Source of the DNA: an uncultured Flavobacteriaceae bacterium
Lineage (GTDB): Bacteria; Bacteroidota; Bacteroidia; Flavobacteriales; Flavobacteriaceae
Assembly: GCA_947501625.1 (NCBI GenBank)
Contig: CANMWN010000001.1
Span: forward strand, 381,319-445,318
Reading direction: 5' to 3'
DNA length: 64,000 nt
Position 1 is the stretch's first letter. Every line of letters starts with the position of its first letter. Under the pieces are notes generated by a model. It did not search any database. It was not told the DNA's origin and saw only the letters and a program-made list of their open reading frames with translations. Both the position numbers and the translations under genes were made by a program. This document shows positions 14,452-43,291 of this stretch, one piece after another.

Positions 14452-15766
14452 CTTTTTCAGTTGGGTTTATGGTCACTTTCACCTGTTTTAATCTGCGTTT
14501 ATCAACTGCTTCAACTTTAAACGCTAGATTATTAAACTTTATTACTTCTTTTACTTTCGGAAACTTTCCTGAGATTTCTAATATAAAACCAGCCAAAGTT
14601 TCGGTTTCACCTTTATCTTCTTCGAAGAGTTCTTCTTCAATATCTAAAACTTTAGAAAAGTCTTTGATAGATGTTTTTCCGTCAAATACGTAATTATGTT
14701 CATCAATCTTAGAATAAGACAAATCATCGTCATCAAATTCGTCAGAAATATCTCCAACAATTTCTTCGATGATATCTTCTAATGTTACTATGCCACTTGT
14801 TCCGCCATATTCATCGACAACAATAGCAAGGTGAATCTTTTTTTCCTGAAATTCTTTTAATAAATCATCTAATTTCTTGTTTTCAGGAACATAAAATGGC
14901 TCTCTCAACAACTTTTGCCATTTAAAATTCTTTTTATTCAAATGTGGCAATAAATCTTTGGCGTATAAAACACCAACAATTTCGTCAACCGATTCATGAT
15001 AAATAGGATTTCTAGAAAATCCGTTTTTAACAATCTGAGCAACAACATTTTCATAAGATTCATCATCGGCAATTGCAAACATATCAATTCGAGGTTTCAT
15101 AATCTGAACCGTCTCAGTGTTCCCAAAATTTACAATTCCCTCTAAAATTTTTTGTTCATCATCAGTTGTAGCATCATCGGAAGTTAATTCCAATGCTTGT
15201 GATAATTTTTCGACTGATAAGTTTGTTTGTTTTTGTCCCAATCGATTTTCAACAAAGTTGGTCAAGCTCATTAACGGAACACTAAAAGGTGTCAATACCT
15301 TATTCAAAAAGTTAATTGGCGTAACCATAAAAGTTGCTAATTTCATAGCATTTCGAGTTGCATATACTTTTGGCAAAACCTCACCAAACAACAAAATTAA
15401 AAAGGTTACTAAACCAACTTCAATAGCAAAACGCAAATACGTATTTTCAATACTACTAAATATTTCTTCGCCCAAAAAAGCAAATACCAACACAATTAAA
15501 ATATTGATAAAATTATTGGATATAAGTATGGTTGCTAATAGTTTTTTGGGATTTTCAAGCAATTTTACAACCGTCTGTTGTTTCTTAGATTTTGAATTGG
15601 CTGCTTCGTCTAAATCAGTTTGAGAAAGTGAGAAAAAAGCAACTTCAGTACCTGAAATAAATGCTGAACACACCAATAAAATGAACAAAACAATAAACCA
15701 TAACAAGATTATCTTGTTAAATAGTAGGAGTGAAAGAGAAAATAAACTCGAGGGTTCTGGATCCAA
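14441..15766 (-). CDS. gldE: Gliding motility protein GldE (DUF21 + tandem CBS + CorC/HlyC transporter-associated domain)
   Basis: 441 aa; N-terminal four-TM DUF21, CBS pair, C-terminal CorC_HlyC domain (GxxxTLAGFILE.....P). The family is also known as a hemolysin-C / CorC Mg/Co efflux family. Confidence 0.75.
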   Translation of the reverse strand: MDPEPSSLFSLSLLLFNKIILLWFIVLFILLVCSAFISGTEVAFFSLSQTDLDEAANSKSKKQQTVVKLLENPKKLLATILISNNFINILIVLVFAFLGEEIFSSIENTYLRFAIEVGLVTFLILLFGEVLPKVYATRNAMKLATFMVTPINFLNKVLTPFSVPLMSLTNFVENRLGQKQTNLSVEKLSQALELTSDDATTDDEQKILEGIVNFGNTETVQIMKPRIDMFAIADDESYENVVAQIVKNGFSRNPIYHESVDEIVGVLYAKDLLPHLNKKNFKWQKLLREPFYVPENKKLDDLLKEFQEKKIHLAIVVDEYGGTSGIVTLEDIIEEIVGDISDEFDDDDLSYSKIDEHNYVFDGKTSIKDFSKVLDIEEELFEEDKGETETLAGFILEISGKFPKVKEVIKFNNLAFKVEAVDKRRLKQVKVTINPTEKDEN

Positions 15767-15788
15767 TTAATAATTGATTTAATTAAAC

Positions 15789-16220
15789 TTAAAACGGTAA
15801 ATCATCATTTTCTTCAACAACATTTTGATTTTCCACATTTTTTGGCTGACTTACAGGTTGAGAAGGCGTATTTCCTAATTCTCTTTTGGTAGATAAAAAT
15901 GTCATATCAACTACATGAATTTCGGTTGAATAGCGCTTCACTCCATCTTCACCTTCCCACTGTCTGGTTTTTATTCTACCTTCACAATATACTTTATCAC
16001 CTTTGGTCAAATATTTTTCACAAATTTCAGCCAATTTATTTCTTACAACTACATTGTGCCATTCGGTAGTTGTAATTTTTTCACCTGTTTTTTTATTGGT
16101 GTATGATTCGTTAGTTGCCACAGGAAATCTACCAATAGAATTCTTATCGTCAAAATAATGCATTTTCACTTCATCTCCCAAATGTCCTATCAACATTACT
16201 TTATTTAAGGTTCCTGCCAT
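15789..16220 (-). CDS. ssb: Single-stranded DNA-binding protein
   Basis: 143 aa; OB-fold core (MAGTLNKVMLIGHLG.....; TEWH.VV....LAE....YL.KG..V..EG...TR.WE...G..R..TEI) and an acidic C-terminal tail ending DDLPF. Confidence 0.92.
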   Translation of the reverse strand: MAGTLNKVMLIGHLGDEVKMHYFDDKNSIGRFPVATNESYTNKKTGEKITTTEWHNVVVRNKLAEICEKYLTKGDKVYCEGRIKTRQWEGEDGVKRYSTEIHVVDMTFLSTKRELGNTPSQPVSQPKNVENQNVVEENDDLPF

Positions 16221-16497
16221 AACTATTTATTGTTTTAAATATCAAAAATACTAAAAATATCAATTGGTGAGAAAAAAGTAATTGTGATAATGTCATTTTG
16301 AGCACAGTCGAAAAATCTTTTTAAAGATTCTTCATTTCATTCAGAATAACAATTGACTTTGTAACTTATTCTCACTAACTTTACCTATCGGACGATAAAA
16401 TCAATTGAAACTGAATTTATCTTAAACCATTAGGCAAAATATAACCAAAACCATCTAAAAAAATAGAAATAATAAAGATACCAGAATATTGATTATG

Positions 16498-16515
16498 CAT
16501 TACGATATCGTAATG
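16498..16515. repeat. 18-bp perfect palindrome cattacgat|atcgtaatg in the 470-bp AT-rich non-coding region upstream of the RT gene
   Basis: Exact dyad symmetry; followed 3 nt later by a second hairpin aatcct-aaagtg-aggatt (16519-16536). It lies about 180 nt upstream of the RT start codon. Confidence 0.75.
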
Positions 16516-16692
16516 TCAATCCTAAAGTGAGGATTTAAATGAAGTTGACTCTTTTTAGATTAACTTTTAATTATTATATCTTTTAAGTTCAAATTATTTA
16601 TAATACTAATATATTTATAATATAATCTCGCTTTTAATTCTTATTAATTAAATTATGATTTATAACTTATTAAAGTTCATACACAAGAGAAT

Positions 16693-18387
16693 ATGCCTGG
16701 TATCTTTTTAGATGAAATTTCCCGAGAAAAAGTAGTTCAAAAATTTAATAATATTAGTTCCATTAATGAATTTGCTTCACTTCTAAATTTTATAGAGAGG
16801 AATAACACTCTTCTTCTAGATAAAAAGAAATTCACACCAATTAACTCAAAGTATTTATACCATTTATCAATAACTAAAGACAAAAGATATAAAGAGTTCA
16901 GTATCTCCAAAAAAAGTGGAAAAGAAAGAAAAATTGAATCACCAGATGAACTCTTGAAAAGGGTACAAAAACTAATTAATTTTTTATTGCAAGTTATTTT
17001 CGAACCATATTCACATTACAGTTCAAATGGCTTTTTGTTTGGAAAAGGAATCATAAGGAATGCAAAACCTCACATTAATAAAAAATATGTTTTAAATTTA
17101 GATATTAAAGATTTCTTTCCATCAATAAACTTTAGAAGAATAAAAGTGGTTTTAGAATTAAACCCATTCAACTTGAAGGATGAAAGAGAAAGAATATCTT
17201 TTCTAATAGCCAATATTTGCACTTATAAAAATCATCTTCCGCAAGGGGTTCCAACTTCTCCTATTTTATCCAATATTGTAACACAAAGATTAGATAGAAA
17301 ATTAACAAAAGAATGTTTAGGTTTAAATATTAAATACACTAGATATGCCGATGATTTAACATTTTCAAGTAATCAGAATATCCTTAACTCTAGTTTTATT
17401 AAAAAGGTTGAACAAATTGTTCAATCTGAAAACTTTGAACTTAACAACAATAAAACAAGACTGCAAACTTCTATGCAAAGGCAACAGGTTACAGGATTGG
17501 TAGTAAACGAAAAGTTAAATATTAAAAGAGAATATTTACAAAAAGTTAGAGCAATGCTCAACAACTGGGAAAAAGGAGGGTTGAATTACGCAGAACTTAT
17601 TTTTAGAAAGCATCAACCAATTGAAAAGAAAGGATATCCTTTTAAGAATGTCTTATTAGGTCATATTTCATTTATTAAACAAATAAAGGGCGCCGAAAAT
17701 AACATCTCCTTAAAACTAATAGAAAAATATACTTTATTAAATAACTTAATAGATTATAGTTTTATAAAAAATAAAGCCGTAAAAGAGAAGTTAATTAGTG
17801 ACAACCATAAAATGGAACAAATACCATTATTAAACAATCAAACTGAAAACGATAAATTTATATCCTTTTGCACTTCTGCTTTTCATCAAATAGAAAACTT
17901 GTTAAATTATTATTACTGGTCAAAATTCAAATTTATTGACTTACTTGAACACCTTTTATTAAATAACCCATCATTTAAGAAGAGGTATAAAAATCTTGAT
18001 AATGCAAAAAATAATTTTAAAAAAATAAGTGAACTGAATATAAATTTAATAGTTTATTTATATGAAAAAGAGTTCTTTTTTGACAAAAAAATATACTACA
18101 AACAAGAAATAACCAAATTAAGAGAAATAAGAAATGATGATTCACATAGATGTTCTGTCATTGATGTTAACAAAGACGAAATCAATAATGAATATGCTAA
18201 GTTAGAAGCAAAAAAAATTGATTTTAAAAAAAGAGGAAAAAATCTAGTATACAGTAACAAGGAGAAAAAGTTTATTTTAAAGTATGAATCTTTTCTTTTT
18301 TTAGAAAACAAGAATTATAAGGAAGTTAGACGCATTTTAAAAGATATTACACTAAATATTAAAAATACTTTGCCTAACAACGTATAA
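16693..18387 (+). CDS. Retron-type reverse transcriptase (Ec86-like RT core) with a ~250-aa C-terminal extension carrying a HEPN-like Rx4H motif
   Basis: 564 aa. The RT core aligns closely with Ec86 RT: domain 1 KKSGKERKIESP; retron-specific NAxxH (RNAKPH); domain 2 LNLDIKDFFPSI; domain 4 LPQGVPTSPILSNI; domain 5 YTRYADDLTFSS (Ec86: YTRYADDLTLSA); domain 7 QQVTGLVVN (retron VTG). About 290 aa follow the VTG motif (Ec86 has about 70), including ..LREIRNDDSHR.. = R-N-x3-H. GC content is lower than in the flanking genes. Confidence 0.85.
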   Translation: MPGIFLDEISREKVVQKFNNISSINEFASLLNFIERNNTLLLDKKKFTPINSKYLYHLSITKDKRYKEFSISKKSGKERKIESPDELLKRVQKLINFLLQVIFEPYSHYSSNGFLFGKGIIRNAKPHINKKYVLNLDIKDFFPSINFRRIKVVLELNPFNLKDERERISFLIANICTYKNHLPQGVPTSPILSNIVTQRLDRKLTKECLGLNIKYTRYADDLTFSSNQNILNSSFIKKVEQIVQSENFELNNNKTRLQTSMQRQQVTGLVVNEKLNIKREYLQKVRAMLNNWEKGGLNYAELIFRKHQPIEKKGYPFKNVLLGHISFIKQIKGAENNISLKLIEKYTLLNNLIDYSFIKNKAVKEKLISDNHKMEQIPLLNNQTENDKFISFCTSAFHQIENLLNYYYWSKFKFIDLLEHLLLNNPSFKKRYKNLDNAKNNFKKISELNINLIVYLYEKEFFFDKKIYYKQEITKLREIRNDDSHRCSVIDVNKDEINNEYAKLEAKKIDFKKRGKNLVYSNKEKKFILKYESFLFLENKNYKEVRRILKDITLNIKNTLPNNV

Positions 18388-18572
18388 AATTAATTGCTAG
18401 TTTTAGCCTACTTACGAAAATCCTTGCGAATTTTCTATTTGGTTTGTATTTGCTAAATTAGTTACTTAAACTACGCAACTAATCTTATACAAAACCGTTG
18501 AAGCACATTCAGCAAAGTTGAACTTTTGTTTCTTCGTGCTTCGCACTCCCATCCCAAAAGATTGTGCTTCAA

Positions 18573-18847
18573 CAGACCTGCTAAACCAAATTATTTAGTA
18601 TAGTGATATTTAAAATTAATATCACCTTTGCTGGGCATCGAGCCAAAACGATGCACCAACTTTTACTAAACATAATTTGGCTCTGCAATTTTTGCTCCCA
18701 ATAATCGAAATTTGGCAAATAACGCAAGACTCGCTTGCTATTCGATAAATTATTATCAGATTGATATAGGAAGTCTAATATCTGATAATAATTGCCCAAA
18801 TTCCTTATATTTACTCAAAAATTACAGAACTACGTTTAGCAGGTCTG
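18573..18847 (+). ncRNA. Candidate retron non-coding RNA (msr-msd) or small TIR-bounded element: 275 bp flanked by perfect 14-bp inverted repeats, multiple internal hairpins
   Basis: cagacctgctaaac (18573-18586) and gtttagcaggtctg (18834-18847) are exact reverse complements (a1/a2-like). The interior has hairpins gtgatatt/aatatcac, gcatcg/cgatgc, atcgaa[gcaag..cttgc]ttcgat, and a 14-bp perfect stem aattattatcagat/atctgataataatt (18748-18761 / 18780-18793) near the 3' end, as expected for an msd stem. It lies downstream of the RT and ends 28 nt before the mutY stop. Confidence 0.35.
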
Positions 18848-18875
18848 ATACATAAAATTATACTATACGCCATAA

Positions 18876-19919
18876 TTATGTGATTTTGATAAATTGTTCA
18901 ATAAAACTATCTATCAGTCTTGGTACTGGAAAATCATGAATATTTTTCCAATCAATAATTAAATCTTTTTTAGTTGTTTTCAAAATCCAAAAATGCGTGT
19001 ATAAATGTTGGTGAGATAGTTTATGTACAATTTCTTGCGAGTTATATAAACTCAATTCATACATTTCTTTTCCAACTATTTTTTTGAATTGCATATCTTT
19101 TGCCAACTCATTTTTATCAATAGTTTTGTCAGTTTCAATCAAAGGAAACTCATATAATCCTTGCCAAATTCCTTTCTGTGTTCTTTGATTTAAAATAGTC
19201 TTATCGTCAGGAGTAACAACAACCAAATAATTAAAGTATCGTTTCTTTATCTTAATTTTCTTCTCCTTGCAAGGCAATTCTTTGATTTTCTTTTTCTCAA
19301 GTGCAATACACTTATCATTCAGCGGACAAATATCACAGTCAGGATTTTGAGGTTTACACATTCTTGCACCAAACTCCATAATCGCTTGATTATGAGTCGC
19401 AGAATTTTTAACATCAATTAATTCTTGCGCCAATTCTTTAAAATACTTAATCCCTTTGGTTGAATTTATTGCCAAGTCAACACCATAAAAACGTGCTAAC
19501 ACTCTATATACATTACCATCAACTACTGCAGTTGGTTCATCAAAACAAATAGAAGCAATTGCCGAAGCTGTATAATCTCCTACTCCTTTTAACTTTAGTA
19601 TTTCTTTATAAGTAGCAGGAAAATTCCCGTTTAACTCCTTAACAATATAGTTGGCAGAGAAGTGTAAATTTCGTGCTCTAGAATAATAACCTAATCCTTG
19701 CCATAATTTTAGCACTTCTTGAATATCGGCATTAGCCAAATCAAAAACTGTTGGATATTTTTCTATAAAATTCAAATAATATGGCAGTCCTTGATCTACT
19801 CGAGTTTGCTGTAAAATAATTTCGGACATCCAAATAAAATATGGATTGGTCGTTTGCCTCCAAGGCAAATCTCTTTTATTGTCTAAGTACCAATTTATGA
19901 GAATGTTAGAAAAATTCAT
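18876..19919 (-). CDS. mutY: A/G-specific adenine DNA glycosylase MutY
   Basis: 347 aa; HhH-GPD glycosylase core with the 4Fe-4S cluster loop (C.....C..C.L...C) and a C-terminal NUDIX-like domain. Confidence 0.9.
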   Translation of the reverse strand: MNFSNILINWYLDNKRDLPWRQTTNPYFIWMSEIILQQTRVDQGLPYYLNFIEKYPTVFDLANADIQEVLKLWQGLGYYSRARNLHFSANYIVKELNGNFPATYKEILKLKGVGDYTASAIASICFDEPTAVVDGNVYRVLARFYGVDLAINSTKGIKYFKELAQELIDVKNSATHNQAIMEFGARMCKPQNPDCDICPLNDKCIALEKKKIKELPCKEKKIKIKKRYFNYLVVVTPDDKTILNQRTQKGIWQGLYEFPLIETDKTIDKNELAKDMQFKKIVGKEMYELSLYNSQEIVHKLSHQHLYTHFWILKTTKKDLIIDWKNIHDFPVPRLIDSFIEQFIKIT

Positions 19920-42611: not shown

Positions 42612-43291
42612 TTTAATTTATGAGTATTTATGTTTTTAACAAATAGATTTTTAGCAACTTCTTCAGTGATTAATATTTTTTGCTCGTTTAAAATTACTTC
42701 AAGGGATTTATCAAAAGATTCTCTATGAACAATCTTTATTTTATTTCCAATCGCTATTCCTTTATTGTTTAAATATTTTAAGAATACATCAGACGAATCT
42801 TTAACACCAACTATTGAACTTTCTTGATCAATTTCTAATTCAGACAATAATTTTTTAGTAAATATTGGGATATTTCCATTTTTATCAGGTATTGGATCTC
42901 CATGAGGATCTACTTCAGGAAATCCAAGAAATTTATCCAAATTATCTATTAAAGTTTCTGACTTCACATGTTCCAATTGCTCTGCTATCTCATGTACCTC
43001 ATCCCATCTGTATGAAAGATGTTTTACTAAAAAAACCTCCCATAAACGATGACTTCTAATAATGGATACTGCTGTTTTTTTACCTTGATCTGATAGTTTT
43101 ACGCCTTGATATTTTTTGTAATTGACTAATTTTTTATCAGCCAATTTTTTAACCATATCAGTTACTGATGATGCTTTTGTAACCAATTTGTTTGCTAAAT
43201 CATTGGTGCTAACATTGCTTTCAGACTTTTTTGAAAGGCTAAATATTGCCTTTAAATAGTTCTCTTCGGTATATGATAAATTACTTTTCAC
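42608..43291 (-). CDS. DtxR/MntR-family metal-dependent transcriptional regulator with a C-terminal FeoA-like domain
   Basis: 227 aa; N-terminal wHTH (YLKAIF.L), metal-binding dimerisation domain (HRLWE.FL...L), C-terminal SH3-like FeoA domain. First gene of the metal ABC operon. Confidence 0.78.
   Translation of the reverse strand: MKSNLSYTEENYLKAIFSLSKKSESNVSTNDLANKLVTKASSVTDMVKKLADKKLVNYKKYQGVKLSDQGKKTAVSIIRSHRLWEVFLVKHLSYRWDEVHEIAEQLEHVKSETLIDNLDKFLGFPEVDPHGDPIPDKNGNIPIFTKKLLSELEIDQESSIVGVKDSSDVFLKYLNNKGIAIGNKIKIVHRESFDKSLEVILNEQKILITEEVAKNLFVKNINTHKLK

Follow-up and report, generated by a model that had tools for sequence, protein, structure and literature searches.

Integron crossover takes place between the G and the TT of the core site, so that the start of a gene cassette is complementary to the inverse core (R'') of its own attC site and not to that of the preceding one. 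The recombination substrate is the bottom strand, and an attC is typically about 57–141 nt long. Known cassettes without an open reading frame (ORF) have an attC of ordinary length, and their non-coding part is placed ahead of it, after the cassette start. Few integrons have been reported in Bacteroidetes (PMC9024848), and reviews place Bacteroidetes among the phyla with integrons (PMC8618304, PMC9668308). Weinberg et al. (2017, PMC5737381) described the DUF1874 motif, a multistem motif in consecutive intergenic regions that was proposed to be an unusually complex attC. Our analysis concerned a 64,000-nt stretch (the window) of contig CANMWN010000001.1 from an uncultured Flavobacteriaceae bacterium (GenBank assembly GCA_947501625.1, positions 381,319 to 445,318, forward strand) and, within it, a 275-bp element at 18573–18847 that is bounded by inverted repeats and follows a gene for a retron-type reverse transcriptase (RT). 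We conclude that the 275 bp do not belong to the retron and probably make up most of a mobile integron-type cassette of 350 nt that carries no gene (18498–18847). The evidence that the element forms a discrete cassette bounded by integron-type ends is good, and we hold this to be likely; as to its structure, we lean towards a recombination site acting mainly as single-stranded DNA (ssDNA) rather than as RNA. Retron and element make up one cassette each, and the 2.65-kb insertion that contains them splits mutY from ssb.

The original prediction, made from the sequence of the window, had described exact reverse-complement 14-bp arms, a 14-bp inner stem, an end 28 nt from the mutY stop codon and the lack of a target-site duplication, and all four descriptions were confirmed. 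The arms and the other parts of the cassette were placed as follows, L081 being a metagenome contig with a second copy:

18498–18847, plus strand: whole ORF-less cassette (350 nt), the unit common to the window and L081
18498–18510, plus strand: putative 5' half-site TTGAAGCACATTC, from the inverted repeat 18497–18510 / 18560–18573 (93% complementary) and folds of the circularly permuted form
18564–18573, plus strand: R''-like inverse core GTGCTTCAAC, including the 7-mer CTTCAAC (18567–18573), whose last C is the first base of the left arm
18573–18586, plus strand: left 14-nt arm CAGACCTGCTAAAC, from the inverted-repeat search, identical in L081
18587–18833, minus strand: 247-nt interior, located where an attC has its variable terminal structure, from consensus folds
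18834–18847, plus strand: right 14-nt arm GTTTAGCAGGTCTG, ending in G18847, which closes the cassette and supplies the G of the predicted G|TT crossover, from the L081 alignment

At up to 2 mismatches, the arm 14-mer occurred at just these two sites in the 64 kb, exceeding the chance expectation of 0.18. No direct repeat flanked the 275 bp, the flanks being ...GCTTCAA and ATACATA.... The inner stem (AATTATTATCAGAT / ATCTGATAATAATT, 18748–18761 / 18780–18793) was complementary over its entire 14 bp (100%), and the consensus folds arranged the interior, this stem included, as a three-way junction of two composite arms with five hairpins. Folded as RNA, the 275 nt reached -81 kcal/mol (z = -9.5) on the plus strand and -104 kcal/mol (z = -10.6) on the minus strand; none of the 200 shuffles was as good on either one. 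A weak similarity between 18774–18824 and 42848–42896, the latter inside an ORF, was taken as chance. Other types of mobile-element end or guide were also considered, namely palindrome-associated transposable elements (PATE) or omega-RNA of IS200/IS605, the bridge RNA of IS110 and the ends of IS91; none found support for this element.

The second copy defined the mobile unit. In a scan of 241 million metagenome records, L081 was the one contig that matched both arms at the right spacing; it carried neither an RT nor mutY. The contig aligned to the window from about 18412 to exactly 18847, with unrelated flanks, and the bases following the right arm were ATACAT in the window and TTAGTAGC in L081. 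Because positions 18498–18572, which were kept in L081, lay outside the consensus of the attC-like repeat family described below and were absent after its other copies, the left end of the cassette was placed at 18498. The predicted extent of 275 bp was accordingly right about the arms and too short for the conserved unit. In L081 the element stood in the middle of an array, co-oriented between a cassette with an 87-aa ORF and a 146-aa ORF, in the order ...CAAGACCG|TTGTACAAT (87-aa ORF, R'' ATTGTACAAC) ...ACACG|TTGAAGCAC (element) ...GGTCTG|TTAGTAGC (146-aa ORF). The same cassette, with identical ends, was thus present in two different arrays.

The two copies differed in 28 of 275 columns, yet both arms were intact in L081 and no predicted base pair was broken. 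Seventeen of the differences fell among the 89 unpaired columns and 11 among the 186 paired ones. Four pairs had changed on both sides in a compensatory manner; in the hairpin at 18724–18738, the stem was replaced with its pairing kept (GCAAG...CTTGC in one copy, GGTTG...CAACC in the other). Three one-sided changes preserved pairing solely on the minus strand, as G.U or G.T. A 72-aa ORF on the minus strand, in comparison, was frameshifted relative to L081, its remaining substitutions were almost all non-synonymous, and no homologue was found among 5.8 billion proteins, so a small protein encoded by the element was rejected. The pair-preserving substitutions, together with the fate of this ORF, pointed to selection on the fold and not on protein coding. 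Outside the 275 bp, a further compensatory change was seen in the hairpin at 18536–18546, which read GTGC-TTC-GCAC in the window and GTTC-TAC-GAAC in L081.

A genome-wide search had been suggested with the original prediction, on the grounds that multiple copies would favour a miniature inverted-repeat transposable element (MITE). Multiple copies were not found, and the single second copy was independent of any RT: blastn returned none from 120 Bacteroidota loci (the first 96 loci and 20 IMG/VR loci included), there were no further copies in the 64-kb window, plasmid and phage collections gave matches to the attC part only, and an exact 22-mer of the element was absent from IMG/VR. In contig L001, a retron cassette 98% identical to that of the window was followed at 2121–2164 by a sequence related to, though diverged from, the start of the ORF-less cassette (ATGATGTACAATTCACC... 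compared with TTGAAGCACATTCAGC...); the junction there was G|AT, and the contig ended before any stretch of the element. A family of such ORF-less cassettes adjoining this retron is possible.

The cassette upstream of the element contained the retron, and the two met at the terminal G18497 of its attC-like site. Its main parts were as follows:

16430–18497, plus strand: retron gene cassette (2068 nt) of putative non-coding RNA (ncRNA), RT and attC, delimited by the start TTAGGC and by homology among RT loci
16693–18387, plus strand: retron-type RT, 564 aa, identified by its ORF, PADLOC models and structures
18369–18497, plus strand: attC-like site of the retron cassette, identified by the nhmmer family profile (E = 2e-32) and covariation of the L box
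18369–18378: R'' 10-mer TTTGCCTAAC of that site, in the 3' end of the RT gene
18382–18397 and 18475–18490: its L'' and L' boxes
18416–18435: its central hairpin
18497: its terminal G

The boundaries were compared with the integron rule by setting the first 10 nt of each cassette (G|TT plus 7 nt) against its own R'' 10-mer in nine cassette instances. The match was perfect in 7 of the 9: the retron cassette, c2 and c3 of contig L089, the ORF-less cassette of the window, the ORF-less cassette and cassette cA of L081, and the retron cassette of L001 (10/10 each). The other two, c4 of L089 and the retron cassette of the window, matched at 9/10. The latter was read by eye (ATTAGGCAAA against TTTGCCTAAC), and its mismatch was the junction base alone, an A where G was expected. 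Set against the downstream junction instead, the same inverse cores matched at 3–6 of 10 positions, and those of the ORF-less cassette at 4/10 (window) and 3/10 (L081). Because each start matched its own inverse core, these units were identified as gene cassettes of the integron type. In a wider scan, 18 of 29 junctions had the expected complement downstream, with a sparser upstream control; an example was the L011 boundary CCCG|TTGTAGTGC, matched by the next R'', GCACTACAAC.

The same rule fixed both cassettes of the window. The ORF-less cassette started with TTGAAGCAC at 18498, directly after G18497, and ended with G18847; its start G|TTGAAGCAC matched its own R'' GTGCTTCAAC at the 10 positions noted above. 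Its cores agreed with RYYYAAC / G|TTRRRY except that CTTCAAC has Y instead of R in its first position and that GTTGAAG (G18847 plus TTGAAG) has G instead of Y in its last. The retron cassette started with TTAGGC (TTAGGCAAA), complementary to the R'' sequence GCCTAAC at 18372–18378 in the last codons of the RT. Homology among RT loci also began at TTAGGC, which was mostly preceded by the ...CG| of another attC.

The retron cassette has a site of a repeat family whose members are about 125 nt long. In each repeat, a variable 7–10-mer ending in AAC and a short spacer came before the box GTATAAAATTAATTGC; a hairpin-bearing variable centre then led to the complementary box GCAACTAATCTTATAC, and after a longer spacer came a G followed by TT, so that the sites showed an R box, unequal spacers, an L box and two conserved non-paired positions. 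In the L-box helix, 6 of 16 pairs changed on both sides, a value that 0 of 500 shuffles reached. Two positions that were never paired on the top strand (A.C) became G.T on the bottom strand. Copies followed the RT in L001, L003, L008 and L089–L096, and were 3'-truncated in L084–L087; they preceded it in L001, L089, L090 and L091 and lay elsewhere in L011. A Tenacibaculum finnmarkense plasmid carried four copies. The pattern was also found in 20 IMG/VR contigs classed as viral (L101–L120), some with two or three copies. In 4.4 kb of L089 (1–4399), five copies in one orientation separated the retron and three ORF-bearing units. The retron cassette itself also stood in arrays in L001 and L089–L091. 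The repeat belongs to an attC-like family that lies between co-oriented ORFs in Flavobacteriaceae arrays. Many of the RT-bearing metagenome contigs were merely 2.0–2.2 kb long and broke inside the flanking repeats. In the literature searched, the coverage of which was incomplete, no paper describing these Flavobacteriaceae repeats was found.

The arrays also held attC-like sites of quite different sequence, seen in L011 (1231–1345 and 2760–2885) and L102 (5283–5385). They were 95–125 nt long and still obeyed the rule linking cassette start and inverse core, and for this reason the recombinase seems to read structure and not sequence. In the T. finnmarkense plasmid loci L082 (3007–4134) and L083 (1893–4131 and 5117–7350), units of an IS91-family transposase and an Xer-like tyrosine recombinase lay directly against family attC sites, on the side of the inverse core. 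Three copies had an identical junction between the IS91 unit and attC, GCTTCCGAGGTACGAGGATTAGTTCAAC, which suggested site-specific insertion of these insertion sequences (IS) into attC sites.

As ssDNA, the bottom strand was more stable than the top strand in 6 of 6 family sites and in both copies of the element site (-73.0 versus -66.2 and -72.4 versus -70.5 kcal/mol). Because this held in all sites tested, the element's preference for the minus strand is explained in the same way as that of ordinary sites. The element most likely carries a 281-nt attC-like site built as a three-way junction, unusually long and structured. By this model, a tyrosine recombinase of the integron kind would cross over at G|TT and release the ORF-less cassette in circular form. 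G18847 would then join TTGAAGCACATTC and rebuild R', and the joined stretch would pair with GATTGTGCTTCAAC and the left arm into a 27-bp stem, of which the 14-bp arms would form the inner half. The 247-nt interior would replace the variable terminal structure of an attC and would have to fold on itself for the two halves of the site to meet in ssDNA. The folded strand would be the bottom (minus) strand, as in known integrons.

Several observations weigh against the element being an integron-type cassette with such a site. An integron integrase was found neither in the 64-kb window nor in the fetched loci, as searched by tblastn and phmmer with one Xer-like query from T. finnmarkense, which matched solely the two T. 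finnmarkense plasmid loci of its origin; the tyrosine recombinases adjoining arrays in that species were Xer-like, IS91-associated and below the cut-offs for IntI. From R'' to the terminal G, the site of the element measured 281 nt, compared with 95–125 nt for the other sites found here. Its R/L region was a perfect 27-bp duplex with neither the unpaired spacer nor the extrahelical bases of an attC, and the polarity of its inner box (GCTAAAC / GTTTAGC) was opposite to that of canonical L''/L'. In the window, G18847 was followed by A and not T, and the retron cassette was preceded by A and not G; with these junction bases, the insertion in the window is not a textbook product of attC x attI recombination. 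Just two copies of the element are known, both from similar marine material, and the strict conservation of its five-hairpin fold would also fit a functional RNA. A more far-reaching idea, which we put forward tentatively and hold to be rather doubtful, sees in the element a hitherto unknown class of mobile recombination site, or else a structured nucleic acid with two uses. In that case it would be a fully paired 281-nt attC-like site of marine Flavobacteriaceae with a three-way junction, possibly served by a non-canonical recombinase and recombinogenic on either strand or doubling as a mobile structured RNA. It would belong to a cassette-array system, largely undescribed so far, by which whole retrons (ncRNA and RT) are also moved as single cassettes.

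The original prediction favoured another role, in which the element would be the msr/msd of the retron downstream of its RT, with the arms as a1/a2 and the 14-bp stem as that of msd. The hairpin layout between inverted repeats, 186 nt after a retron-type RT, would agree with this. The prediction had also named the check by which it should be judged, conservation of the element at homologous RT loci, and it did not survive that check. We fetched 80 related RT loci, and DNA homology among them began at about 16430–16470, roughly 260 nt ahead of the RT start, and ended at the RT stop, in no case reaching the element. The element was missing from all other RT loci, including those whose proteins were 88–92% identical: it was absent at P0004 (88%) and P0003 (90%), and in Tenacibaculum discolor L002, the closest homologue with full context (92% RT protein identity), 44 nt separated the RT stop from the next gene. 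An alignment of 19 loci instead placed a candidate ncRNA upstream of the RT:

16474–16707, plus strand: candidate retron ncRNA (msr/msd), from the 19-locus alignment and covariation
16474–16490, plus strand: a1
16498–16515, plus strand: msr hairpin
16690–16707, plus strand: a2, over the RT start codon (ATG at 16693)

Here a1 (AAAGATACCAG.AATATT) pairs with a2 (AATATGCCTGGTATCTTT) in a two-part helix that covers the RT ATG, and 7 of its 16 pairs changed on both sides, as in GATACCAG/CTGGTATC against GGTATCTG/CAGATACC. Over all 23 tested pairs, those of the msr hairpin included, 93.8% of cells were paired, versus 35–52% with the partner slid, and 0 of 500 shuffles reached the observed value. The 19 loci also shared the invariant core TTGATTATGCATTnCGATATCGnAATGT and a nearly invariant G16491 directly after a1, and the fold of this ncRNA had z = -4.0. 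The predicted layout of a1, msr hairpins, AT-rich msd region and a2 over the RT start is that of a canonical retron. Read on the RT strand, the left arm of the element was followed by C18587 and not by a priming G, and the arms were invariant in the only two copies, so they offered no compensatory change. With a copy in L081 that has no RT, the downstream msr/msd has next to no probability.

The RT that accompanies this ncRNA matched PADLOC retron RT models at about 1e-98 to 1e-50, its nearest solved structures were the RTs of retrons Ec67, Ec86, Kva2 and Ec78, and it belongs to a family of ~560-aa proteins of Flavobacteriia and Bacteroidota with a conserved C-terminal domain. A group II intron, in which an RT ORF is flanked by structured RNA, was rejected, as there was no Rfam match and the RT was retron-type. 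The C-terminal domain (residues ~360–564, 17770–18384) had no Pfam match and contained the invariant motifs F..CT.AFHQ.EN and R480-N-D-x-S-H485-R. The second motif resembles the Rx4H motif of HEPN-type nucleases, and the domain could be the effector part of a one-gene retron. In L084 (3553–5837), as in L085–L087, an 88%-identical RT was followed by the 3'-truncated attC, two ThsB-type TIR genes and a gene for a caspase-like peptidase C14, a different defence neighbourhood for the same retron.

The cargo could instead be a structured ncRNA whose arms both close the RNA fold and serve as the recombination stem, a mobile regulatory or antisense RNA made from the minus strand (as a 3' untranslated region of mutY) or from the plus strand by read-through from an upstream cassette. 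The very stable and specific fold (z about -10), the larger RNA stability of the minus strand, the neutral or compensated nature of all substitutions, with three pairing through G.U on that strand alone, and the known regulatory activity of some ORF-less cassettes (PMC6557892) would suit such an RNA. Other findings spoke against it. The Bacteroidetes-type promoter TAnnTTTG was found on neither strand of the ORF-less cassette, an RNA from the minus strand would be antisense with respect to the array, and the flanking genes differed between the two known copies. Rfam searches with both strands of 15500–19500, L089 and L081 gave nothing relevant and no family match at E up to 1–10, and the bottom-strand bias of ordinary family sites needs no RNA explanation. 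We therefore regard an RNA cargo as unlikely, at odds of a minority reading, and an integron-type cassette with a mainly ssDNA site as the better account.

The proposal of a miniature element with terminal inverted repeats, also raised in the original prediction, was correct in that the element is a small mobile non-coding unit. As a 275-bp MITE, a non-autonomous transposon moved by a transposase encoded elsewhere, it would have perfect 14-bp terminal inverted repeats and two unrelated genomic places in its favour. The lack of a target-site duplication and of dispersed copies, with the single match in the metagenome records, did not agree with this, and homology between the copies ran 75 nt past the left arm to a G|TT junction, the unit ending at the crossovers 18498/18847. 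A MITE is very improbable on these grounds. Equally improbable is local selection for a bidirectional terminator, or an insulator, at the point where the RT and mutY genes converge and strong hairpins would stop read-through from mutY into RNA antisense to the RT. In L081, where no genes converge, the same sequence stands between co-oriented cassettes; the element also greatly exceeds the size that a terminator requires and has no T-run after its main stems.

The insertion that holds both cassettes lies between mutY (18876–19919, minus strand) and ssb (15789–16220, minus strand), near a gldE-like CNNM gene. In the nearest relatives (MutY 76% identical), the gene order was HU, mutY, ssb, gldE, gldD, with 7 nt between mutY and ssb; in the window this gap was 2.65 kb, of which the two cassettes filled 16430–18847. 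Short direct repeats flanked the whole insertion:

16216–16222, no strand assigned: GCCATAA, copy 1
18869–18875, no strand assigned: GCCATAA, copy 2, adjoining the mutY stop codon

The repeat extended to 10 of 11 positions over ATARTTATGGC. A relic of the ancestral 3' end of mutY adjoined ssb (~16223–16275), and the MutY of the window was ~8 residues shorter than that of its relatives. The relic carries the Bacteroidetes -7 promoter motif TATTTTTG, which may now drive ssb. The junction bases of the insertion were A|TT and G|AT and not G|TT, with ~207 nt and 21 nt of extra sequence inside it. These flanks, with the 7-nt repeat and the mutY relic, could not be reconciled with one clean insertion mechanism. 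With no integrase found in the window, the two cassettes resemble a cluster of attC sites lacking an integrase (CALIN).

The findings in this study corrected the location of the RNA for this retron family, and the a1/a2 helix with its covariation can aid the use and classification of the ~560-aa Bacteroidota retron RTs. They also indicated that a complete retron (ncRNA, RT and attC) is packaged as one cassette of the integron type in marine Flavobacteriaceae, where surveys report few integrons. The site of the element is attC-like and about twice the size that standard detection accepts. IntegronFinder has a default maximum attC size of about 200 bp, and cassettes of this kind would escape detection because their site exceeds that limit. 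If the site is active, it would test how much structure an integron-type recombinase tolerates and whether extrahelical bases are really needed.

Compared with known systems, the element shares with a retron msr/msd its structured, non-coding nature, its inverted-repeat boundaries and its position next to a retron RT, but it did not co-occur with the RT family, lay on the wrong side of the RT and had no priming G after its left arm. With CALIN and integrase-mediated insertion outside att sites (bioRxiv 10.1101/2022.09.11.507474), the locus has in common two cassettes at a housekeeping junction (mutY-ssb) and no integrase found within 64 kb; the junction bases, the extra sequence and the 7-nt direct repeat set it apart. 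Like the ORF-less integron cassettes of Treponema and the oral metagenome (PMC6557892), the unit is short, lacks coding potential, has attC-type crossover ends and occurs in arrays, whereas its palindrome takes up 281 of 350 nt, nearly the whole cassette, and no consensus Bacteroidetes promoter was found. The DUF1874 motif differs in that these sites had no match to any Rfam family; likened by description and not by sequence, it is likewise an attC-like site of more than one hairpin between consecutive ORFs. From an integron attC, such as the long repeats of conserved sequence in sedentary chromosomal integrons (~125 nt in Vibrio cholerae), the element differs in its 281-nt length, its three-way-junction interior in place of a simple stem, its fully paired R/L region, the lack of an IntI gene among those found and its host in Flavobacteriaceae, a group with few described integrons (PMC9024848). 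The likenesses to attC were tested on the ~125-nt family, and those of the boundaries also on the element: an imperfect palindrome at the 3' end of the cassette that starts with ...AAC and ends at G|TT, a cassette start complementary to its own inverse core, sites that part co-oriented ORFs, and a bottom strand that folds better than the top.

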